Positions 19,763-30,067 of a stretch of DNA of 64,000 nucleotides are shown one piece after another. Below the pieces are notes generated by a model, which ran no database searches, was not told the origin of the DNA, and saw only the letters and a list, made by a program, of their open reading frames with translations. Within the stretch, counting starts at the first letter, position 1; each line of letters starts with the position of its first letter. This DNA is from a bacterium. Its GTDB lineage: Bacteria; Verrucomicrobiota; Kiritimatiellia; CAIKKV01; CAITUY01. A program made the position numbers and the translations under genes. The stretch lies in assembly GCA_037134355.1 (NCBI GenBank), contig JBAXMJ010000001.1, positions 16,951 to 80,950 of the forward strand, given 5' to 3'.

Positions 19763-20431
19763 TCAGGCTTGCCAGATCTCAATTGAAATCGCATTACGCA
19801 GCGCCAAGCCAGCCACAACCTGAGCCGGAGACTCGATCAGCTGCGTGACAATGGCTTTCTTTTCAGGACCCGCAACCAGGATGACCAACCGTTCTACCCG
19901 GCGCAACAGTTCGGGCGTAACCGAGATACGGTCCGGTTTAGGTTCATGGGGAACCGCCACCGCATAGAGGTTTTCGCCCCTGGCCACATCCTCAGGAGTG
20001 AACAGAGACGCTGTATGGCCATCCGCCCCGAGCCCCAGCAGCCCAAACGTGATACGTCCATTGCCATTCATGAAACGGCGAAGCTCCTCGTGATACCGGG
20101 TGGACGCAGCCTGCCACGCCAGCTCTGTGTGGACCCGGAACACCCGCGATTCAGGAAGGCTCAATTGCTTCAGAAGAGGAATGGTTGCGCCGTAATTGCT
20201 GTCGGTCGAGCCGGCGGGCACATATCGCTCGTCGGAGTAAAGTAGCCGTACCGAGTCCGAGGCCTTTCTTTGCCGCCGGCACAGTTCCTGGTAGACCCGA
20301 ACCGGGGTTGTTCCCCCGGAGAGCATGACGGCAACGGGTCCTGTCTCCATAAGATGGCGTTCCAGATGATCAGCCGTTTCCTGCGCCAAGGCCTCCGCCG
20401 AGGCAAAATGCCGGAGCGTGTACCGGGTCAC
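19763..20431 (-). CDS. pgl: 6-phosphogluconolactonase
   Basis: 'VMLSGGTTP' motif; overlaps the zwf stop. Confidence 0.8.
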   Translation of the reverse strand: MTRYTLRHFASAEALAQETADHLERHLMETGPVAVMLSGGTTPVRVYQELCRRQRKASDSVRLLYSDERYVPAGSTDSNYGATIPLLKQLSLPESRVFRVHTELAWQAASTRYHEELRRFMNGNGRITFGLLGLGADGHTASLFTPEDVARGENLYAVAVPHEPKPDRISVTPELLRRVERLVILVAGPEKKAIVTQLIESPAQVVAGLALRNAISIEIWQA

Positions 20432-21906
20432 GATGACTTCCCCTGCTGAAACCCGTATCGCCGGGCCAGCCTGCGCCCCGCTTCAGGGCCGGCGCTTCCA
20501 TAGGGATAGGACTCGGGGACGGTTTTCCGGGATTCGAGCTCGTGAAGGACGGGAGTGAAAATATCCCAGGCCGCCGCCAACTCGTCGGCCCTTATGAAAA
20601 GGTTGCGATCCCCCTCTATCACATCAAGCAGGAGGCATTCATAGGCATCTGGAATCAACACATTAAACGCCGACTGGTAGCGAAGGTTGAGTTCGGTCCG
20701 GGCGAGTTCCAACCCCAGCCCCGGAACCTTATTCATGATCTTGAGTGTGATCGCCTCATCCGGCTGAATGCGGATCACCAACTCATTGGCCTCCACCCGC
20801 GCCTGCTGCCCTCCCCACAACTCACTTGGAACCTCATGAAACCGGATCCGGACCTCGTTGATACGTTCATCCAGCGCCTTACCAGCCTCAATCAGGAAAG
20901 GCACCCCTTCCCAGCGGGGATTATTGATTTTCAGGAGGGCGGCGGCATAAGTGGGCGACAGGGAACCGGGAGGAACCATAGGCTCCGCCGCATAGGCGGA
21001 TTGTCGTCCGGATTCCGAAGCGCCATACTGGCCGACCACAAGGTCGTCCAGAGACAACGGCTGGATCGCCTTGAGTAACTGTACCTTGGCGTCGCGAATT
21101 GCCCCCGCATCAAACTTCACGGGTCGTTCCATTGCCAGGAGCGACAGGATCTGCAACAAGTGATTCTGCATCACGTCCCGGATAATCCCGAACCCGTCAA
21201 AATAGCCCCCGCGCGGCCCCACACCAACCGGCTCGGCCCATTTAATGTGAACACTGTGGATCGTCCTCCGGTTCCAAAGCGGCTCGAAAATGAGATTGGC
21301 AAACCTTAGAACCAGGAGATTCTGGACAATTTCCTTTCCGAGATAATGATCGATCCGATAGGTCATGTCCTCGGTAAAAACCTTCTGCATTTCCTGAATC
21401 AGGATATCGGAGCTCTGCCGATCCCGCCCAAAAGGTTTCTCAATGACAATCCGGGACCATTCATCACGGTCTCCGCAGGCCACCAGCCCCGAATCACCCA
21501 ACGCCTGAGCCACATCCATAAAGACAGAAGGAGGAATGGCCATGTAAAAAATCCGGTTCACCGGCCCGTCGCCTTCCAGTTCGTGCATAAGTTGGAAGAG
21601 GTCCAGGAACGAGTCTGGCGAGGAATACTGCCCCTGGCAATAATAGCACCGGTTCAGAAACGCTTCCGTCCTGTCGGCGCAAGACGCTACTTCCGGGGTA
21701 TACCGGCAGGTTAGGTTTTCCGCGATCTTCCGGCGAAACCCCACGTGATCAAAATCGCTTCGGGCCAAACCGTAAAGATGAAAGTCTGCAGGAAGGTAAC
21801 CCTGGCAAAAAAGCGAAAATAGCGCGGGAATCACTTTCCTCTGGGCGAGATCTCCTGAGGCCCCGACCACAACGATCCCGAGCTTGTTTTTCAGGCTCAT
21901 GAGCAT
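20428..21906 (-). CDS. zwf: Glucose-6-phosphate 1-dehydrogenase
   Basis: 'VVGASGDLAQRK' NADP motif, 'DHYLGKE' active site. Confidence 0.9.
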   Translation of the reverse strand: MLMSLKNKLGIVVVGASGDLAQRKVIPALFSLFCQGYLPADFHLYGLARSDFDHVGFRRKIAENLTCRYTPEVASCADRTEAFLNRCYYCQGQYSSPDSFLDLFQLMHELEGDGPVNRIFYMAIPPSVFMDVAQALGDSGLVACGDRDEWSRIVIEKPFGRDRQSSDILIQEMQKVFTEDMTYRIDHYLGKEIVQNLLVLRFANLIFEPLWNRRTIHSVHIKWAEPVGVGPRGGYFDGFGIIRDVMQNHLLQILSLLAMERPVKFDAGAIRDAKVQLLKAIQPLSLDDLVVGQYGASESGRQSAYAAEPMVPPGSLSPTYAAALLKINNPRWEGVPFLIEAGKALDERINEVRIRFHEVPSELWGGQQARVEANELVIRIQPDEAITLKIMNKVPGLGLELARTELNLRYQSAFNVLIPDAYECLLLDVIEGDRNLFIRADELAAAWDIFTPVLHELESRKTVPESYPYGSAGPEAGRRLARRYGFQQGKSS

Positions 21907-22052: not shown

Positions 22053-23720
22053 TCATGGCCGGGTTGCCTCCCGCGTTGGCTTGAGAACGACATAGGAGGG
22101 AAGTCCCCTGACACCAAAAGTCTCAAGTGCTTCGCGGGTTGCCGGATCCGTCGACTTTTCCGCTTGGAATTTGACAACCAGATAATGGGAAAGACGTCCC
22201 TTCACCTTGGCATCCTTAAAGGTCGTCAACTCCATTGCCTCGCAATTTTTGCACCAGGTCGCCCAGAAATCTATTAAGACCGGCTTCCCGGATCCCGCCG
22301 ATTCGCGAAGAATATCCGTCCACCGGTCATGATCCGATGCGGTGATTTGATAAACGCCCACACCGGCCTGTTGAGACACCTGTGCTCCCCGCAAACCCTG
22401 ATAGGCCAGGGAAAAATAATACACCGCAAACAACAGGATGAACACACCGAACCCTTTCTTGATCCAAGTCATCCAATTACCCGGTTTGGGAAGAAAGGTG
22501 AGCCCGGCGCCCGCCAACGGCCAGGGCAAGGCCATCCCAAGCCCCAAAATAAAGGGAAGCGCTAACCCGATCCCGGCCCCATGGGAATACAGATTGCCGG
22601 ACAGCAACAGCACCGCAATCACCACGGGGGCCACACAGGCACCGGCAAGAAGGGCGGCCACCCCGCCCATGATGAAGGCGGCAGCCACCCGGCCCTGCCC
22701 TGGACTCCCCGACCCGGTTCCAACACTCTGGAATCGGGTAAAATCAATCGTGAAGACATCAAACATTGCCAGGGCCAACGCCACAAAGATGATCCCAATT
22801 ACCCCATTGAACCACGGCATCGAATTGAGTGCCCCGAACTGGGAGCCGGTCAACACAACCACAAGACCCAATACTCCATACACGAGGGCAATTCCGAGAC
22901 CATAACACGAACCCAACAGCAGTCCCCGCGCGCGAGTGCTGTTCTGCGCCCCAACCCCCAGAATAGCGAGATTGATCGGAATCATTGGCAAAACACAGGG
23001 GGTAAGATTCAAGAGGAGTCCCCCAATGACAATCAAAAGAATAGTCCACCAAGCCCCATGAATCTTCAAGAACTCGACGGGGTTAATTCCGAAAAGAAGA
23101 AAGCCAGCCTTGATCCTGGACGCCCACGTCGTCCGCCCCGGTATTCCAGAAACATCCTTTCCCTCGGCACGATCCAGAAATACCAGGAAGTCAGAAGCGC
23201 CCATATAACCGGAAGCTCGCGCTGAAATGACCGGGGTTCCCGTCATTCCTATCCAGCCGGAAGTGCGTTCGGCGATGCGTTCCCCGCCCCCCTTTACTAT
23301 CGCTTCAGCCGGTTCCAAGCCCACAGTCCGGAGTGTGTAAAAAAGGGTTTTCGGGAAAAAGCATTCCTGTTCATTGCAGCCCTGATATGAAAATTTCACT
23401 ACCGAACGCCCGGGAGTCGGAACTCCGGCATTGTAGATCAATTTGACATCCCGACTGAACGCAGGTCGTTCGGAATCACTCAAGGAATCATGGATCGTAA
23501 CAGGACTATCCCCGCCCACTTGGCGTAAACGAGCACCCCCCTCCAGACTGGCCTCAACCTGATCGGCATATACGTGATGTCCCGAGGGAACCGAAACTGA
23601 AACCGATACCAGAACATTTGAACCCTCAGTAGCTTGGCTAAACGCAATACGAAAAGGATCCGCCGCATACGCTGAAACGACACCCGCCAAGGCCAACAGC
23701 CCTATGATTAGCTTTTTCAT
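22053..23720 (-). CDS. dsbD: Thiol:disulfide interchange protein DsbD-like (TM core plus C-terminal thioredoxin domain)
   Basis: Signal peptide, multiple TM helices with Cys, C-terminal 'WATWCKNC'. Confidence 0.75.
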   Translation of the reverse strand: MKKLIIGLLALAGVVSAYAADPFRIAFSQATEGSNVLVSVSVSVPSGHHVYADQVEASLEGGARLRQVGGDSPVTIHDSLSDSERPAFSRDVKLIYNAGVPTPGRSVVKFSYQGCNEQECFFPKTLFYTLRTVGLEPAEAIVKGGGERIAERTSGWIGMTGTPVISARASGYMGASDFLVFLDRAEGKDVSGIPGRTTWASRIKAGFLLFGINPVEFLKIHGAWWTILLIVIGGLLLNLTPCVLPMIPINLAILGVGAQNSTRARGLLLGSCYGLGIALVYGVLGLVVVLTGSQFGALNSMPWFNGVIGIIFVALALAMFDVFTIDFTRFQSVGTGSGSPGQGRVAAAFIMGGVAALLAGACVAPVVIAVLLLSGNLYSHGAGIGLALPFILGLGMALPWPLAGAGLTFLPKPGNWMTWIKKGFGVFILLFAVYYFSLAYQGLRGAQVSQQAGVGVYQITASDHDRWTDILRESAGSGKPVLIDFWATWCKNCEAMELTTFKDAKVKGRLSHYLVVKFQAEKSTDPATREALETFGVRGLPSYVVLKPTREATRP

Positions 23721-24073
23721 GCTGCGGACCGCTTCGGCCAATTTTTGACGAGGTTCACCACTTCCAGAACATAGGCGCACTCACATTGGGCCGGACAGGG
23801 AGCAAGATTGCTTTGATGCAGGCATTGCCCCGAACATTTAGCAGAGCCTTCACGCCGCTCCTGAAAGATTGTTCCGTTGTAGAGATCGAGAAATTCCGCG
23901 GCCTGAATCGACATTGTTGTAAAACATTTATTCTCAAGGTGATTAAAGAGAAAAAAACCTTCCCTTAAATGCTCGAAATTGACTTGATAGCCAACAATAC
24001 TGATGTTTGGATCCCCCAGAAAATCCTCCCTGGTCTTCCACGAAAACCCACATGTGCAATCTCGAAAATTCAT
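23717..24073 (-). CDS. Hypothetical Cys-rich protein
   Basis: About 118 aa from MNFRDCTCGF...; several CxxC-like pairs (CSGQC, CPAQCEC). Sits between the ferritin and dsbD genes. Confidence 0.35.
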   Translation of the reverse strand: MNFRDCTCGFSWKTREDFLGDPNISIVGYQVNFEHLREGFFLFNHLENKCFTTMSIQAAEFLDLYNGTIFQERREGSAKCSGQCLHQSNLAPCPAQCECAYVLEVVNLVKNWPKRSAA

Positions 24074-24146
24074 TATCTCGCTCCTGCCCCTAAAAACAGT
24101 GCGGGCGGCCGGGGCCGCCCACACCGCCCCCATCATTCCGCGACGT

Positions 24147-24659
24147 TTATGACGCGGCTCCCCGCTTCCCCAACTGCTTATCAATCATCAACAGCGTCCC
24201 CGTTGAACTTCCCGCCATCCGAAGCATCGAGAGAATATCGATATCATTCGATTCTTCTTCAATCTGTTCTGTGATGTACCATTGCACCAGTGACTGGGTG
24301 GCATAATCCTTCCCAGCCACGGCAACATCCATCAGTTCGTTCAATGACTTCGTGATGAACTGCTCATGCTTGAGCGTAGACTCATACATCTCAAGGAGAG
24401 ACTTCCACGTCCACTTCGGCTTTTTGATCTCATTCAAGGTAACTCCCGCCCCCTGACTCTGGAGATAATCATAAAACTTCAGGGCGTGCCCCTGTTCCTC
24501 CTGGAACTGAACGCGAAACCACTTTCCTGCCCCCTTATAACCCTTAGCGGTCGCATCGGCGGACATCGCGAGGTACAAATAAGCTGAATAGAGTTCCCGG
24601 TTGAGCTGCTCGTTAATTGCCTTTTCAATTTTTTTAGTGATCATTGTCAGACCTTCCAT
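24147..24659 (-). CDS. ftnA: Non-heme bacterial ferritin
   Basis: Ferritin diiron ligand pattern 'ELYSAYLYLAMS...EEQGHALKF...QWYITEQIEEE'. Confidence 0.8.
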   Translation of the reverse strand: MEGLTMITKKIEKAINEQLNRELYSAYLYLAMSADATAKGYKGAGKWFRVQFQEEQGHALKFYDYLQSQGAGVTLNEIKKPKWTWKSLLEMYESTLKHEQFITKSLNELMDVAVAGKDYATQSLVQWYITEQIEEESNDIDILSMLRMAGSSTGTLLMIDKQLGKRGAAS

Positions 24660-25024
24660 AAACCATGCAGATTACAAAACTCGCGTACAACTACTGTCGT
24701 AGCCTTGACGCCCTCAAAAACGGCAATGGCAGGCTGCCCGGGCTTCAAATACTGGCGCAACACGGTGTCACCAGCAATCAATTCAATCCACTCTATGAAA
24801 TGCTTCTCTTCCATCGGATGCGGCACGCTGCCTACAGTCACCTTGAACCCGTTGGTCAGGCGCTCCACCACAGGAATATGCTTCTCCTTAGAGGCATCCA
24901 CAGTGTTTTCCGAAAGTCGCTTCATCTCAGCCCCGCAACACACCAGTGTGCCGCCAGAAGCGTGCACCACTTCAACAATATTGCCGCATACTTCGCACTT
25001 ATAAATTTCCGACCTGTTTGTCAT
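24647..25024 (-). CDS. dfx: Desulfoferrodoxin (2Fe superoxide reductase)
   Basis: N-terminal desulforedoxin 'CEVCGNIVEV...LVCCG' plus center-II domain with His and Cys ligands. Confidence 0.85.
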   Translation of the reverse strand: MTNRSEIYKCEVCGNIVEVVHASGGTLVCCGAEMKRLSENTVDASKEKHIPVVERLTNGFKVTVGSVPHPMEEKHFIEWIELIAGDTVLRQYLKPGQPAIAVFEGVKATTVVVREFCNLHGLWKV

Positions 25025-25061: not shown

Positions 25062-25217
25062 TCACTGGGGAGAAAAATCATCCTTGCCCACACCACAGTC
25101 CGGACAGGCCCAATCCGCCGGGATATCTTCAAACGAAGTTCCCGGCGCGATTCCATGGTCCGGATCACCTATTTTCGGATCGTATACATATCCACACACA
25201 TTACACACAAACTTCAT
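25062..25217 (-). CDS. rub: Rubredoxin (51 aa); not in the ORF track because it is shorter than 60 aa
   Basis: My own translation: [51 protein letters not shown], with canonical CxxCG...CPxCG pairs. Confidence 0.85.
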
Positions 25218-25255
25218 TCCCGCATCCTCCACCATTATTTATTCGTTTATCCGTG

Positions 25256-25711
25256 CTATTTTTTCCCGACCAAAGATTTTACATGTTTGACATACGCCTC
25301 AGCCCCACCAGGCATATACCCGGTCCGGGCCAATTCTTTTCCCTGCCCATTCAGGAGTAGAACCGTCGGAAACCCCTGAACATCAAACTTCTCAGCCAGC
25401 AGGTCGTTCTGCTTTTTGACATCCTCCGGAAGTTTTGATTTCCGGGGAAAATCTACCAGAAGCAACACAAGATCAGTCTTGGCGTAGGCCTTAAACTCTT
25501 CTTTTGAAAACACTTCCTTGTCCAGTTTGATACACCATCCACACCAGTCTGACCCCGAGAAATCAACCAGGATGGGAACTTGTCGCTTAACGGCTTCCGT
25601 CTTGGCCGCCTCCAGAGACGTCAACCACCCGTCACCACCCGCCAGTGATGGAACAGTCAACGCGCAGATCAACGCCACACCCGAAACAAATCCATTAACC
25701 TTCATTGTCAT
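25256..25711 (-). CDS. Secreted thioredoxin-family protein
   Basis: Signal peptide plus 'WCGWC' active site. Confidence 0.75.
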   Translation of the reverse strand: MTMKVNGFVSGVALICALTVPSLAGGDGWLTSLEAAKTEAVKRQVPILVDFSGSDWCGWCIKLDKEVFSKEEFKAYAKTDLVLLLVDFPRKSKLPEDVKKQNDLLAEKFDVQGFPTVLLLNGQGKELARTGYMPGGAEAYVKHVKSLVGKK

Positions 25712-25716
25712 ACTCC

Positions 25717-25929
25717 TTAATTAAACCTTTTTTGAGGCCTTGCCAAATGGGCTGCAAACTCACGCTCCGCTTCAGCCCGTATACGGTATCCACAATCCTT
25801 CGCCAAGCCAAATAACCCGACACAATTTTCGTCTACGCACTCGGCGTGACCGGTATCAGCCACCTCAATGAGATTGGCCGCAACATCGAGTAACCGCCTC
25901 ACATTTTTATTATTATCATGCATTCTCAT
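25717..25929 (-). CDS. Small hypothetical Cys-containing protein; first gene after the sigma-54 promoter
   Basis: 70 aa; GGAG RBS 6 nt upstream; 'HAECVDENC..C'. Confidence 0.35.
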   Translation of the reverse strand: MRMHDNNKNVRRLLDVAANLIEVADTGHAECVDENCVGLFGLAKDCGYRIRAEAEREFAAHLARPQKRFN

Positions 25930-25959: not shown

Positions 25960-25975
25960 TGCAAGAGTTGTGCCA
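25960..25975 (-). promoter_or_regulatory. Sigma-54 (RpoN) -24/-12 promoter: minus strand reads TGGCACaactcTTGCA
   Basis: Perfect match to TGGCAC-N5-TTGCW, about 30 nt upstream of the 25929 ORF and 128 nt downstream of the bEBP gene on the same strand. Confidence 0.7.
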
Positions 25976-26102
25976 GAACGAATAAAAGACTTCTTAAAAA
26001 TCCATAACCTGCACGGAGAAAACAGGTTGTGAGTTTATCGGTCCGTTTTGGATCCCACAGTCGAGTGTCTCACAGTGTCGCCTGGCTGTATCAGGAGACG
26101 AC

Positions 26103-27866
26103 TTATCCGTTCTCATCAAGAAAACGGTAGAGGGTGGCGCGAGACACACCTAACAACTTGGCGGCCTCAACCTTATTGCCGCCTGCCTGCAAAATGGCGG
26201 CTTCAATACTCTCACGAGTCAGGCGTTGACGTCCCCGCATCGGAGGCGGAGCGGGCCGCTCGGGAGGTGGCGGTGTTTTCGCAAGTGCCATCGGATTCAG
26301 GGCAATCGGCGGCAAATGATCGCGCTGGATTACTCCACCCTTGCATTTGATCAGTGCAAATTGGATCCAGTTCTGAAGTTCCCGGACATTGCCGGGCCAA
26401 TTATAATCCAACATGAAGTCAATGGCGTCTGGTGAAAAACTAATAGTCTTCCCTACAGCCAATTGCTTTAAAAAGTGATTGGCCAGCAGGGGAATGTCGA
26501 GCCGCCGTTCCCGGAGAGGTGGCACCACCAAGGGGACTACGCTCAAACGGTAAAACAAGTCTTCCCGGAATTTTCCCGCCGCCATTTCCTTCTGGAGGTT
26601 TCGATGGGTCGCACTCACTACCCGGACGTTCACTTTGATGGTTTGTTCGCCCCCCACCCTTTCAAAAGACCCTTCCTGCAAAACGCGCAGCAATTTAACC
26701 TGCATAGCCGGCGAAATATCACCGATTTCATCCAGAAAAATGGTGCCGCCGTCAGCGAGCTCGAAACGCCCCTTCTTGTCACGGATCGCGCCGGTAAACG
26801 CCCCCTTGACGTGCCCGAACAGCTCGCTCTCCAGCAATCCTTCTGGAAGCGCACCGCAATTCACGGGCACAAACATTTTTCCGGCACGTGGCCCCTCGTT
26901 GTGAAGCGCTGCGGCAACCAGCTCTTTTCCTGTTCCGCTTTCTCCCTGGATGAGCACTGAAGCGGAGGATTCCGCAAGCTCGGGAATCAGGTCATACAAG
27001 GCCAGCATTTTAGGATCACGCCCCACAATTCCCGCAAACTGCTCAATGACGCCCAACCGGCGCGCCAATTGCAGCTCCCGTGTGACATCCCGGAAACAGG
27101 CCAGAACGCCGACATTTTTTCCTGCCAGGTCGGCCATGCTATTGACCGTCATGGAAATCCTGCGGTGCTCGCCGCTGGCGGTTACAATTTCAACCTCCTT
27201 GTTCAGAGCGTCCTTCGGGGGCTCACCCCCGTTACAAAACAAACACTTAGCCCCGCATAAGCCCCCGGGAATGACCTTATGGCAATCCCGGTTCAGAAGA
27301 GACTCACGCGAATAACCAGTTATTTTCTCGGCGGCGGCATTGAAATAAAAAACGCGGCGATTGAGGTCATGCGCAATCACCCCGTCTGACATACTCTCAA
27401 GAACCTGATCCCCCGTGCGCTTTGATTGCAGAAACGCATCCAGGTATCCCCGCTCATAAAAGTCATCCACCAATCTCCGGATCGTCTCACACCACCGCCG
27501 CAAGGAGTCCAACACCGCAGCCTGATCCTCGGCACGATCCGAAAAATCATCCAGAGTCCAGTGCAACTGAAGAGGATTACCCGGTAATACGGCGCAGGGC
27601 CCATCCGCCGCGTTGCACAAGGAAACCGCGACATCAAAAACAGTATTGCCCATCTGGCTCGGGATTCCGCCATCCCGTTCCTCGGGAACCACGCGAAATT
27701 CAGACAGCACGCGCCACGCCAGAGGGGAAACCCGCCCTGAGGAGATCCCGGCATAGTGAACCACCACGTCTGCACGGCCTCTTGCCCGGGCAAAAGCCGC
27801 CGCGATCGCGCTGACGGTGGCGTCTTTCCCTCCAACAAAAATCAATTGATTGATCGGTTTAGCCAT
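26103..27866 (-). CDS. Sigma-54-dependent Fis-family transcriptional activator (bEBP) with a degenerate ArsC/LMW-PTP-like N-domain and a Cys-rich PAS domain
   Basis: AAA+ 'GESGTGKE', exact 'GAFTGA' sigma-54 contact motif, C-terminal Fis HTH. N-terminal domain aligns to thioredoxin-coupled ArsC with the P-loop replaced ('VGGKDATVS') but the Cys pair 'CNAADGPC' retained. PAS domain carries 'CHKVIPGGLCGAKCLFC'. Confidence 0.8.
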   Translation of the reverse strand: MAKPINQLIFVGGKDATVSAIAAAFARARGRADVVVHYAGISSGRVSPLAWRVLSEFRVVPEERDGGIPSQMGNTVFDVAVSLCNAADGPCAVLPGNPLQLHWTLDDFSDRAEDQAAVLDSLRRWCETIRRLVDDFYERGYLDAFLQSKRTGDQVLESMSDGVIAHDLNRRVFYFNAAAEKITGYSRESLLNRDCHKVIPGGLCGAKCLFCNGGEPPKDALNKEVEIVTASGEHRRISMTVNSMADLAGKNVGVLACFRDVTRELQLARRLGVIEQFAGIVGRDPKMLALYDLIPELAESSASVLIQGESGTGKELVAAALHNEGPRAGKMFVPVNCGALPEGLLESELFGHVKGAFTGAIRDKKGRFELADGGTIFLDEIGDISPAMQVKLLRVLQEGSFERVGGEQTIKVNVRVVSATHRNLQKEMAAGKFREDLFYRLSVVPLVVPPLRERRLDIPLLANHFLKQLAVGKTISFSPDAIDFMLDYNWPGNVRELQNWIQFALIKCKGGVIQRDHLPPIALNPMALAKTPPPPERPAPPPMRGRQRLTRESIEAAILQAGGNKVEAAKLLGVSRATLYRFLDENG

Positions 27867-27867
27867 A

Positions 27868-29157
27868 TCATGAATCCAAATACCCGCGCTTCACGGCATC
27901 CCGGATCATATTTTCAGCGAATTCCCACAATACACGGGACCCTTCCTCAACATGCCGGTTACGCTCCAGCACCTGTCCGCTACGAACCCCGTGCTTTTTC
28001 CACACCACTCCTGCCGTTCCGAAATTATGCATCAGAGGCTGAACCCGATCCAACGCCGCGGCAAATTTTGCCTCAGGGGTCTCACGAGCCTCGAATTCCG
28101 CCCAGATCGACATCAGATCCTGCCCCTGTTCATCCGGCAAAAGCCCAAACAAACGTTTTGCAGCAACCTGTTCACGAGCCACTTTATCACGGTTTCCAAT
28201 CTCGTCATAACAATAGGTGTCGCCGGCATCGATTTCCACGATGTCATGAACCAGAACCATCCTGATCACCCGTGCCAAATCCAGCCGGGGCTCATTCGCG
28301 TGTTCACACAGCAACACGGCCATAACCGCCAGATGCCAGGAATGTTCCGCATCATTCTCATAGCGGCTCCCGTCCAGCAACAGGGTGCGCCGTAATACGG
28401 ACTTCAATTTATCAATTTCCCGGATGAAATCCCACTGCTTTGCCAGACGACTCACCCCTGGTAATGGTTGCCCCCCATCCTGTCGTCGGGGTTCAGAAAT
28501 CCTGGCTCCGGGTCTTGCCTGTTCCACCCACTTCACGATTCGCTCGGCCACCTCGCGCTTGGACATCACCGGAAAGGGAATTGCCGGAGCGTCAGCCGTG
28601 ATAAACATCACCCGGTTGGTATCGACATCGAATCCTGCGTCGGGCTGGCTGACATCATTGGCGACGATCATATCCAGCCTTTTGGTCGTCACCTTGCGTC
28701 GCGCTTCGGCTTCTACATCAGTCGTCTCCGCTGCGAATCCCACAACCGTCCGGCTCCCTTTCCGGGGCTTCAGGGCCATCAGGATATCCGTTGTGGGCTC
28801 AAGCGTGAGCGTGGAGGACGCCTGGCGTTTTTTTACCTTCAGGCGGCTTACCTCTACCGGTCGCCAGTCGGCGACGGCAGCCGCCATCACCAGGGCATCA
28901 CAAGACTCGAAGTGGGTCGACACGGCGTCCAGCATCTCGGCGGCGGAGACCACGGACACCACGCGAATTCCCGCCGGGGCCGATAGGGAAACAGGACCGG
29001 AAATGAGAACCACCTCGTGCCCCCGATCGCGGGCCGAAACGGCAATGGCGTAGCCCATCTTTCCGGAAGAGCGATTACTGAGGAATCGAACGGGATCCAT
29101 GAACTCGCGAGTCGGCCCTGCTGTGATGAGAAAACGCATGCCGCTACCTTGCGTCAA
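27868..29157 (-). CDS. coaB: Fusion protein: phosphopantothenate-cysteine ligase (CoaB) N-domain plus HD-domain (YfbR-like 5'-deoxynucleotidase, HD_3) C-domain
   Basis: 'LITAGPTREFMDPVRFLSNRSSGKMG...AAAVADWRP' is CoaB. The C-terminal 'ENDAEHSWHLAVMAVLL...VLVHDIVEIDAGDT' is an HD metal-binding domain. Confidence 0.6.
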   Translation of the reverse strand: MTQGSGMRFLITAGPTREFMDPVRFLSNRSSGKMGYAIAVSARDRGHEVVLISGPVSLSAPAGIRVVSVVSAAEMLDAVSTHFESCDALVMAAAVADWRPVEVSRLKVKKRQASSTLTLEPTTDILMALKPRKGSRTVVGFAAETTDVEAEARRKVTTKRLDMIVANDVSQPDAGFDVDTNRVMFITADAPAIPFPVMSKREVAERIVKWVEQARPGARISEPRRQDGGQPLPGVSRLAKQWDFIREIDKLKSVLRRTLLLDGSRYENDAEHSWHLAVMAVLLCEHANEPRLDLARVIRMVLVHDIVEIDAGDTYCYDEIGNRDKVAREQVAAKRLFGLLPDEQGQDLMSIWAEFEARETPEAKFAAALDRVQPLMHNFGTAGVVWKKHGVRSGQVLERNRHVEEGSRVLWEFAENMIRDAVKRGYLDS

Positions 29158-30067
29158 ACTCGCGAATCTTTTCGCGAACGGTCGCTTCCGCCTCTGTGTA
29201 AATCTCCTGGATCATCTCGTCATTGAAACAATAGACTCGATCCTCGAAGGACGTTGTTTTGATCCGGTCGAAAAGACGCTGGCGGGCCAGATCAATGTCC
29301 TTGCCGTAAATGTGGAAGGAATCCGCCTGCCAGTTCAGTCGGCCGAGCTTGACCGTTTTTCCGGAACGGCGTGCCACTTCAGCGGCGATGACATCCCGGT
29401 TGAACAGCACAAAGCCGAACATATTCATGAAGTTTGCGCCCCAGGCATCATTACTGCGGAACCGGATATTGCAATTCAGCCACCACACCCCGTCCTTACC
29501 CTCCAGGATACGGTACCAGAGCGACTGGAGACAGGGGGGGTCGTAGCAATCGAGATCCATGTTAGGCATCCACGTGATCATCTGGGCCTGGCGGGTAAAA
29601 GGCTGCTTCACCAACTTGTTGATAACGGCCTCGACTTGATTGACCTTGAAAAACCCTGTCTCGATGGATTCGTAATTGCGAAGTTCCTTCCAGGCACCGT
29701 AATTCGCAAGCCGCCCGTGATAGGTATACTCCCACCGCGTGTCGGCCGGGTCATTCATGTTCTTGACCCAGTGATCCTTGACTCCCTGGAGTTCCATCAC
29801 ATACTCGCGGAGATCCTCAATTCCGCCTGGGAATGCCTTGTGGATCATGGGATCGGCCAAAGGATTCTCGACCGTGATATTCATGGTTGAATCCAGACTG
29901 GCGGGATCGCCGGGCTTGTCATACTGGGTGCGGAACCGAGTTCCGTTTTCATGAAGGGCAAGCAACGCCTTTTCATAAGCCTCCGCCAAAGACACTCCCG
30001 CCACATGAAGAACCGGTATGTTTTCCATTCCACCCTCTCCTTTATTGGATTCCATAACCCCACTCAA
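29144..30067 (-). CDS. Divergent thymidylate synthase (ThyA) family protein
   Basis: Active-site equivalents 'PPCLQSLWYRI' (cf. PCHAFFQFYV) and 'LNCNIRFRSNDAWGANFMNMFGF' (cf. [22 protein letters not shown]), plus 'ADSFHIYGKD'. Overlaps the coaB-HD start by 14 nt. Confidence 0.55.
   Translation of the reverse strand: MSGVMESNKGEGGMENIPVLHVAGVSLAEAYEKALLALHENGTRFRTQYDKPGDPASLDSTMNITVENPLADPMIHKAFPGGIEDLREYVMELQGVKDHWVKNMNDPADTRWEYTYHGRLANYGAWKELRNYESIETGFFKVNQVEAVINKLVKQPFTRQAQMITWMPNMDLDCYDPPCLQSLWYRILEGKDGVWWLNCNIRFRSNDAWGANFMNMFGFVLFNRDVIAAEVARRSGKTVKLGRLNWQADSFHIYGKDIDLARQRLFDRIKTTSFEDRVYCFNDEMIQEIYTEAEATVREKIREFDAR

Follow-up and report, generated by a model that had tools for sequence, protein, structure and literature searches.

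We analysed a stretch of 64,000 nt, referred to below as the window, from a genome of the Kiritimatiellia (Verrucomicrobiota; assembly GCA_037134355.1, contig JBAXMJ010000001.1), and studied in it a gene for a bacterial enhancer-binding protein (bEBP), that is, a sigma-54 activator, together with the gene cluster directly behind it. The protein is best described as an OrpR-like bEBP with a Cys-cluster PAS domain that acquired a pseudoenzyme domain derived from arsenate reductase (ArsC) and appears to govern a rubredoxin/desulfoferrodoxin/ferritin/DsbD operon. Among characterised bEBPs, OrpR alone has an iron–sulfur (Fe–S) PAS domain. The regulator gene and its parts are as follows (window positions; residues are those of the protein; LMW, low molecular weight):

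26,103–27,866, reverse strand: bEBP gene, an open reading frame (ORF) of 587 aa that starts MAKPINQ and encodes an ArsC-like domain, PAS, AAA+ and HTH_8
27,417–27,866, reverse strand: ArsC/LMW-phosphatase-fold domain, catalytically degenerate (residues 1–150; PDB profile matches, AlphaFold2 (AF2) and Foldseek)
27,810–27,836, reverse strand: degenerate P-loop VGGKDATVS (residues 11–19; gapless hidden Markov model (HMM) alignment to pI258 ArsC)
27,594–27,617, reverse strand: C84...C91 (CNAADGPC, residues 84–91), counterparts in the alignment of the redox pair Cys82/Cys89 of ArsC
27,420–27,524, reverse strand: long C-terminal helices of the N-terminal domain (residues 115–149) with the motif IRRLVDDFYERGYLDAFLQ, joining the PAS N-cap
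27,075–27,410, reverse strand: PAS domain (residues 153–264; Pfam PAS / PAS_9 / PAS_4)
27,234–27,287, reverse strand: Cys cluster D194-C195-H196...C204-G205...C208...C211 (C-x8-C-x3-C-x2-C), putative Fe–S or metal ligands
26,529–27,029, reverse strand: AAA+ sigma-54 interaction domain (residues 280–446; PF00158, E = 1e-70)
26,124–26,216, reverse strand: Fis-type HTH_8 DNA-binding domain (residues 551–581; PF02954)

Pfam and NCBIfam models matched the protein at residues 153–261 (PAS), 280–446 (Sigma54_activat) and 551–581 (HTH_8), and also identified AAA_lid_14. The AAA+ motifs are intact, with Walker A (GESGTGKE) at residue 308, GAFTGA at 355 and Walker B (DEIGD) at 379. Judged by these domains and motifs, the protein is a complete single-component bEBP. 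A first-pass annotation, made by a model from the letters of the window, had covered positions 27,230–27,866, which correspond to residues 1–212 in the 5′ third of the ORF. All three strings that it had singled out are present: VGGKDATVS at residues 11–19, CNAADGPC at 84–91 and CHKVIPGGLCGAKCLFC at 195–211.

The PAS domain carries an invariant cysteine triad

The string at residues 195–211, CHKVIPGGLCGAKCLFC, reads C195-x8-C204-x3-C208-x2-C211. A genome scan with a single representative for each GTDB species yielded 469 relatives of the sensor region, and most of the best 80 span residues 1–275. Conservation was counted over ∼80 related loci; counts for the P-loop and for C84/C91 were made on 74. 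C195, C204 and C208 were each found in 80/80 related bEBPs and C211 in 70/80, which is far beyond chance, and the triad was also invariant in two further alignments (A1 and A5). In the PDB, the sequences closest to the domain were the haem-PAS of Escherichia coli DosP and LOV domains. The DosP counterpart of C204–C211 is the segment RPAHPEYI, part of the F-alpha helix that supplies the haem-ligating His, and C195 falls at the position of the photoactive Cys of LOV domains (motif NCRFL). The PAS cysteines thus line the canonical cofactor pocket formed by the E-alpha and F-alpha helices.

The closest precedent is OrpR (DVU2106) of Desulfovibrio vulgaris Hildenborough, in which the fully conserved C52/C61/C65 (C-x8-C-x3-C) are required for redox sensing. 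Ultraviolet–visible (UV-vis) and electron paramagnetic resonance (EPR) spectroscopy indicate a [4Fe-4S]2+ cluster in the purified protein, which mild oxidation turns into [3Fe-4S]1+ (PMC8359166). Like OrpR, the window protein is a single-component bEBP from an anaerobe, with PAS N-terminal to AAA+ and HTH. The spacing of C195/C204/C208 is identical to that of C52/C61/C65, to the extent that the residue numbers coincide after 143 is subtracted. In both systems the regulator gene lies next to its target promoter, and the upstream activating sequence (UAS) of OrpR is palindromic. Unlike OrpR, the window protein has an extra ArsC-fold domain of 143–150 residues before PAS, a mostly conserved fourth Cys (C211) and GAFTGA instead of GAFTDA. 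At the second position after the first Cys of the cluster (Cys+2) it carries Lys197 where OrpR has Asp/Glu; this residue is Glu in the relatives P0001 and P0002 and variable elsewhere. The UAS also differs, and the neighbouring genes are those of defence against reactive oxygen species (ROS) instead of orp genes. Furthermore, OrpR seems to be restricted to delta-Proteobacteria that harbour Orp proteins (PMC8359166), whereas the window host belongs to the Planctomycetes–Verrucomicrobia–Chlamydiae (PVC) group.

By analogy with OrpR, the invariant PAS cysteines, together with C211 and perhaps H196, most likely ligate an oxidant-labile [4Fe-4S] cluster. Sensor kinases of the NreB and AirS type likewise use PAS Cys ligands for an O2-labile Fe–S cluster, although their output is a histidine kinase and not a bEBP and their Cys spacing differs, being C-x2-C-x11-C-x2-C in NreB. 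The cofactor could also be of another kind. Four Cys and an adjacent conserved His might form a Zn or haem-thiolate site, and a bEBP that senses H2O2 by metal release is known: PexR of Myxococcus xanthus, whose GAF domain has a Zn/Fe site and which controls ahpC and katB (PMC12754779). The PAS cysteines would then bind Zn2+ or another metal, hold haem through Cys/His or form disulfides directly, and the protein would be a PexR/Hsp33-like thiol or metal-release sensor. We regard this as distinctly unlikely, given that the spacing is identical to that of the OrpR triad, where the UV-vis and EPR spectra indicate a [4Fe-4S] cluster, and that the hosts are anaerobes rich in Fe–S sensors. The suggestion of the first-pass annotation that the PAS cluster could be a cofactor or redox site is supported.

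The N-terminal domain has the ArsC fold with a degenerate P-loop

Pfam and NCBIfam assigned residues 1–152 to no family, and LMWPc (PF01451) was unmatched even at E ≤ 10; a MoCF_biosynth match (E = 0.12) was spurious. Structure-linked searches were more informative. With phmmer against the PDB, the domain matched Deinococcus indicus ArsC2 (8p5n; E = 2.9e-6) and Staphylococcus aureus pI258 ArsC (E = 4.4e-5). When a profile of four family sequences was used, the 14 best PDB matches were all LMW-phosphatase (LMWP)-type ArsC, aligned end to end (E = 4e-9 to 3e-4). An AlphaFold model built from an 81-sequence alignment reached a pLDDT of 92.4 and a pTM of 0.89; the four-sequence family alignment had given a pLDDT of 47, and a good model needed 77 further distant relatives. 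In Foldseek, ArsC of Bacillus subtilis, D. indicus and S. aureus (1jl3/8p5n/1jf8) ranked top with a probability of 1.0 and TM of 0.7–0.8, and LMW protein tyrosine phosphatases (LMW-PTPs), Wzb and YwlE ranked below them. On the grounds of profile alignment and predicted fold, residues 1–150 are homologous to thioredoxin-coupled LMWP-type ArsC, with an LMW-PTP fold, as the first-pass annotation had proposed.

The alignment to pI258 ArsC is gapless across the P-loop, where Cys10 corresponds to Gly12, Arg16 to Val18 and Ser17 to Ser19, the last being the sole one kept. Downstream, again without gaps, Cys82 corresponds to Cys84, Cys89 to Cys91 and Asp105 to Asp106. The domain thus shares with the ArsC proteins of pI258, B. 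subtilis and D. indicus (ArsC2) the fold and the equivalents of Ser17, Cys82, Cys89 and Asp105 in order and spacing. It differs from them in lacking Cys10 and Arg16, in being fused to a transcription factor via an extended C-terminal helix and in being missed by Pfam LMWPc. Catalysis in the LMW-PTP superfamily proceeds by thiolate attack from the C-X5-R loop. Given this mechanism and the replacement of both the nucleophilic Cys and the P-loop Arg, the aligned sequence identifies the domain as a pseudoenzyme that cannot be a reductase or a phosphatase, in agreement with the loss of the catalytic P-loop reported by the first-pass annotation.

Against the two relatives with unsaturated divergence, the ratio of nonsynonymous to synonymous substitution rates (dN/dS) of the domain was 0.14–0.16, equal to that of the PAS domain. 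We therefore conclude, from this ratio of ∼0.15 and from a linker helix that is kept family-wide, that the domain is under purifying selection and still functional; the dN/dS rules out a decaying remnant. Its most conserved part across the family is the C-terminal helix IRRLVDDFxxRGYLxAL, and the IRRLVDDFYERGYLDAFLQ motif was found in all loci. In the AF2 model, helices span residues 115–138 and 141–149, and the long C-terminal helix extends towards the PAS N-cap. V133 and G140 were invariant in the diverse family alignment A4.

A role related to arsenic was ruled out, as there are no ars genes nearby and the catalytic residues are lost. The domain could instead be a receptor in the manner of pseudophosphatases, whose remnant P-loop would bind, without turnover, either a phosphorylated partner or an oxyanion (for example phosphate, sulfate or arsenate). 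The Gly-rich loop with its Ser19 is kept and the domain is under purifying selection, both of which would fit such a role. The anion-clamping Arg is lost, however, all members of the clade have an Asp (D15) in the loop, the P-loop sequences diverge widely between sub-clades and the neighbourhood holds no ars or phosphate genes. We consider a ligand receptor very unlikely.

Among the 74 loci, the C...R signature of the P-loop was intact in 20, reduced to one of the two residues in 18 and absent in 36. The degenerate loops vary by sub-clade, with GGxDAxxS throughout the window's clade and GDGGNNLHL or GDEFRTAPV elsewhere, which suggests that the P-loop was lost repeatedly and independently. Six close orthologues (L008, L009, L012, L014, L015 and L025) carry a Cys at the P-loop position aligned with Arg16 (GGxDAxCSA), where the window protein has Val18; this Cys showed no consistent pairing with C84 or C91.

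The retained pair C84/C91 could act as a thiol switch, in which an oxidant would induce a C84–C91 disulfide that thioredoxin re-reduces, and the accompanying loop-out movement would, together with the PAS cysteines, signal to AAA+. The two residues align exactly with ArsC Cys82/Cys89, and the operon encodes thioredoxin-like and DsbD proteins. Both are kept in 27 of the 74 family members, including 17 of the 20 with an intact P-loop, although only 10 of the 54 with a degenerate loop keep them. We also compared 13 close orthologues, including the window protein (WIN), at ≥63% identity. Both Cys were present in five of them (WIN, its nearest relatives L005, L006 and L007, and L025), only C91 in six (L008, L009, L001, L015, L016 and L017), only C84 in L012 and neither in L014. 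Orthologues that lack one (L008, L009, L012 and L016) or both (L014) nevertheless have the same promoter and operon. Moreover, the ArsC 82–89 disulfide forms via Cys10, which is absent here. A switch in the N-terminal domain is accordingly rather improbable in our view: as its distribution among orthologues with the same promoter and operon indicates, the pair cannot be the family's core switch and would at most be a lineage-specific modulator. Of the retained Cys pair described in the first-pass annotation, the alignment with ArsC stands, the role as a functional thiol switch is not supported, and orthologue conservation, which supports the PAS cluster, fails to support C84/C91.

A sigma-54 promoter and a candidate enhancer follow the regulator gene

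The region between the regulator gene and the next ORF contains three elements:

26,066–26,100, reverse strand: candidate enhancer (UAS), with cGTCTCc at 26,100–26,094, TGATACA at 26,093–26,087 and TGAGACA at 26,072–26,066
26,006–26,028, reverse strand: inverted repeat AACCTG-N11-CAGGTT between UAS and promoter, a phylogenetic footprint with TAAC...GTTA kept in the clade
25,960–25,975, reverse strand: sigma-54 promoter TGGCACaactcTTGCA (−24/−12), TGGCAC-N5-TTGCA, 128 bp past the bEBP stop and on the same strand

TGGCAC-N5-TTGC at 25,975–25,961 was the only perfect match within the 64-kb window, and the promoter is kept ∼50 bp upstream of a small ORF, the first gene of the operon, in 17 related loci. 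By phylogenetic footprinting, TGAGACA falls within a fixed interval of −93 to −98 relative to the promoter in 14 of 18 loci, although the bEBP stop itself varies from −113 to −277. Its partner lies at about −115 to −126 and is an inverted copy, TGTCTCA, in distant lineages and cGTCTCc/TGAtACA in the window's clade. TGAGACA and its partner thus form a candidate site with the geometry expected of a bEBP enhancer. The inverted repeat between them and the promoter is possibly a site for a bending protein or a second site. A scan for sigma-70 promoters and terminators over 19.5–30.2 kb gave numbers at or below shuffle expectation.

The downstream operon encodes oxygen defence

Behind the promoter, the following genes were annotated:

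25,717–25,929, reverse strand: small protein of ∼68–70 aa, the operon's first gene, with a probable start at 25,923 and two conserved Cys
25,256–25,711, reverse strand: thioredoxin-like protein (DsbH-like, CGWC; Pfam Thioredoxin_7/_2; NCBIfam DsbH, E = 1e-35, below cut-off)
25,062–25,235, reverse strand: rubredoxin (PF00301, E = 2e-24)
24,647–25,024, reverse strand: desulfoferrodoxin (2Fe superoxide reductase; TIGR00320, 190.8 bits, above cut-off)
24,147–24,659, reverse strand: ferritin (PF00210, E = 1.5e-36)
23,717–24,184, reverse strand: Cys-rich protein between ferritin and DsbD, in a position conserved in the clade; the real start is likely the internal MNFRDCTCGF
22,053–23,780, reverse strand: DsbD-type thiol:disulfide reductase (conserved synteny)
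19,763–21,906, reverse strand: glucose-6-phosphate dehydrogenase (G6PD) and 6-phosphogluconolactonase (PGL), the syntenic end of the cluster

The adjacent sigma-54 promoter and the rubredoxin, desulfoferrodoxin, ferritin and DsbD genes speak for the overall idea of the first-pass annotation, an oxidant or redox sensor that drives the AAA+ domain. The small protein matched no Pfam or NCBIfam family and is defined by the motifs D-[DE]-[NG]-C and [RK]-D-C-[AG]-Y-[KR]-I-[RK] (D-E-N-C...K-D-C-G-Y-R-I-R in the window). With an HMM built from 28 homologues it was recovered in 33 of the related loci, nearly always immediately behind the bEBP with ArsC-like and PAS domains, and no other gene ever comes first after the sigma-54 promoter. 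A role as a feedback partner for the regulator is conceivable. The thioredoxin-like protein is probably exported, as its hydrophobic N-terminus indicates, and the Cys-rich protein (C-x-C ... C-x3-C ... C-x3-C-x-C), which had no family match, may by its Cys pattern be a metal or Fe–S protein. Between DsbD and G6PD/PGL lies a gap of 147 bp, so the latter may have their own promoter; a supply of NADPH for the thiol and rubredoxin systems of a presumed anaerobe is a plausible role for them.

We compared 84 loci by tblastn and obtained the order bEBP, small ORF, (thioredoxin-like protein), rubredoxin, desulfoferrodoxin, ferritin, Cys-rich protein, DsbD and G6PD. It is held in every clade member with enough flanking sequence and partly held in lineages at 42–59% bEBP identity, including Desulfobacterota.

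The nature of the operon bears on the sign of regulation. OrpR is active when reduced and off when oxidised, its PAS domain acts negatively on AAA+ and its Cys-to-Ser form is constitutively active (PMC8359166). Following OrpR, the reduced holo form with [4Fe-4S]2+ would be the active one here as well, such that the operon would be switched on pre-emptively under anoxia and switched off, or handed over to other control, upon oxidation. This is the sole experimentally established behaviour of a bEBP with a Cys-triad PAS domain. Shutting off superoxide reductase, rubredoxin and ferritin just as oxidants arrive would, however, be physiologically odd, and the constitutive activity of Cys-less (apo) OrpR means that full cluster loss could equally amount to activation, which would suit a defence operon. 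We consider the OrpR-type sign unlikely, though not negligible, and favour the opposite one. PexR offers a second comparison as a sigma-54 activator of oxidative-stress defence that is autoinhibited by an N-terminal metal-binding sensor domain; the window protein differs from it in its ArsC-like and PAS-Cys sensor and in its rubredoxin/desulfoferrodoxin/ferritin operon.

Upstream of the regulator, on the same strand, lie a gene for a phosphopantothenate–cysteine ligase (DFP/CoaB) domain fused to an HD_3/YfbR-like 5′-nucleotidase domain (CoaB-HD; 27,868–29,157) and, preceding it, an archaeal-type thymidylate-synthase-like gene (29,144–30,067). Both are syntenic with the bEBP gene across the whole clade. 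The bEBP ATG is one base past the CoaB-HD stop codon, and from this distance and the synteny we conclude that the three genes are probably co-transcribed.

The family is widespread and diverse

Word-indexed protein searches had returned only ∼5 proteins with the N-terminal domain, wrongly implying extreme rarity, which broader searches corrected. When 1.84 billion cluster representatives were searched exhaustively with an HMM, 1005 relatives emerged, many of them proteins of 580–620 aa with the same order of ArsC-like, PAS-Cys and AAA+ domains, such as P0039, P0045, P0074 and P0088. The ArsC-PAS-AAA+ architecture occurs in at least ∼65 species-level genomes, some with an intact C-X5-R loop. 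Hosts are mainly Verrucomicrobiota/Kiritimatiellia and Lentisphaerota/Victivallales, with further members in Planctomycetota, Desulfobacterota, Bacillota (Ammonifex), Fibrobacterota and others. The nearest relative comes from an uncultured Verrucomicrobiota metagenome-assembled genome (MAG), with 86% identity over the sensor and 91% over the whole protein. The NCBI protein P0178 (‘PVC group bacterium’) has precomputed Pfam matches to LMWPc (PF01451), PAS and Sigma54_activat and keeps both Cys of the pair. The first-pass annotation had found the architecture unfamiliar. Literature searches found no paper describing the ArsC-PAS-AAA+ combination, although its PAS-Cys part matches OrpR and the architecture itself is not unique to the window.

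Linkage to the operon varies over the family. Of 57 loci with ≥1.6 kb of flanking sequence, 27 have the small ORF and operon downstream, such that the family as a whole is not uniformly tied to a ROS-defence regulon. The small ORF was linked to 11 of 15 members with an intact P-loop and to 16 of 42 with a degenerate one. Since intact-loop members are linked to it too, the ancestral role of the ArsC module was probably related to redox and not to arsenic.

These intact members allow a broader, more speculative view, in which ArsC-PAS-AAA+ proteins would be unrecognised two-input redox regulators. In members with an intact loop and the Cys82/Cys89 pair, the ArsC domain would sense peroxide or disulfide stress via its low-pKa Cys, or reset the adjacent PAS Fe–S or thiol state, in a thioredoxin-coupled relay; the window lineage would be a relay-dead derivative that uses the scaffold, and in part C84/C91, as an allosteric lid. 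We attach a low but appreciable probability to it. If true, enzyme-to-sensor conversion could be seen at several stages in one family, whose proteins would control the principal operon for O2 defence in anaerobic members of the PVC group.

Several individual loci were unusual. In L002, which is identical to L010 (JGI 3300045671 / CAJBSZ010000556; 2132–3896), the bEBP of a close relative is split by a frameshift at the C91-equivalent codon into called genes of 106 and 500 aa, which may reflect a mistake in the assembly or genuine pseudogenisation. In a Chitinivibrionales MAG (L066, 8871–11,293), an ArsC-PAS bEBP is followed by ORFs that resemble hypC/hypD/hypE, judged by their N-terminal sequences only; with such hydrogenase-maturation-like neighbours, not all family members appear to control a ROS operon. 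Desulfobacterales have PAS-only bEBPs with the Cys triad (L003, 8001–12,382; L085, 6110–8810) that are ∼45% identical in PAS and lie after a DUF2400 gene. The neighbours in L003 include a hybrid-cluster protein (Prismane, hcp), glutaredoxin, ferredoxin-thioredoxin reductase and nitroreductase, and the neighbour in L085 is Usp. We looked for orp genes next to the PAS-only relatives and found none, nor was there a sigma-54 promoter in L003 at up to one mismatch. The differing neighbours suggest that the Cys-triad PAS module serves several redox or nitrosative regulons.

A proposed mechanism

On balance, and with slightly better than even confidence, we favour a single-component sigma-54 activator in which a catalytically dead ArsC-fold domain and a PAS domain of the Fe–S type act as sensor and control the adjacent O2/ROS-defence operon. 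The HTH domain would bind the TGTCTCA/TGAGACA-type enhancer, centred ∼100–110 bp upstream of the TGGCAC-N5-TTGCA promoter. While the [4Fe-4S] cluster that we infer for the PAS cysteines is undisturbed, the sensor region would probably keep the AAA+ ATPase inactive, as in OrpR, NorR and PexR. Exposure to O2 or ROS, or a raised redox potential, would alter the state of the cluster and release AAA+, which would then oligomerise, hydrolyse ATP and form the open complex, so that the operon is transcribed. The regulated unit would run from the small two-Cys protein through DsbD and probably include G6PD/PGL. As the N-terminal domain is no longer an enzyme, is under purifying selection and has a conserved helix to the PAS N-cap, we propose that it serves as a structural or allosteric module, for dimerisation or partner docking, joined to the PAS N-cap by the RLVDDFxxRGYL helix. 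In the window's immediate sub-clade, C84/C91 may add a thiol input.

Besides the partial linkage between family and operon, several points weigh against this mechanism. The link to OrpR is one of motif spacing and architecture only, and the acidic residue that OrpR conserves at Cys+2 is Lys197 here (Glu in close relatives). The sign established for OrpR (PMC8359166) is the opposite of the one proposed. Finally, the nearest sub-clade (WIN, L005, L006 and L007) keeps both C84 and C91, and a local thiol switch is possible there.

Implications for oxygen defence in anaerobes

In strict anaerobes, repressors of the PerR/Fur type are usually held to control oxygen defence by superoxide reductase, rubredoxin and ferritin. 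For Kiritimatiellia/Verrucomicrobiota, Lentisphaerota and some Desulfobacterota, our comparisons speak for a sigma-54 activator with an Fe–S-type PAS domain as a controller of O2 defence. This would extend the Fe–S PAS type of bEBP, of which only OrpR has been characterised, to a family with many more members, a broader phylogenetic range and a regulon of another kind. With the promoter, the enhancer half-sites and the candidate Cys ligands defined, the hypothesis is directly testable, and a genetically encoded switch that responds to redox state or O2 in anaerobes could be developed from the sensor. The natural series from intact to degenerate P-loops is also a clean one in which to study the recruitment of an arsenate-reductase/phosphatase fold for regulation as a pseudoenzyme.

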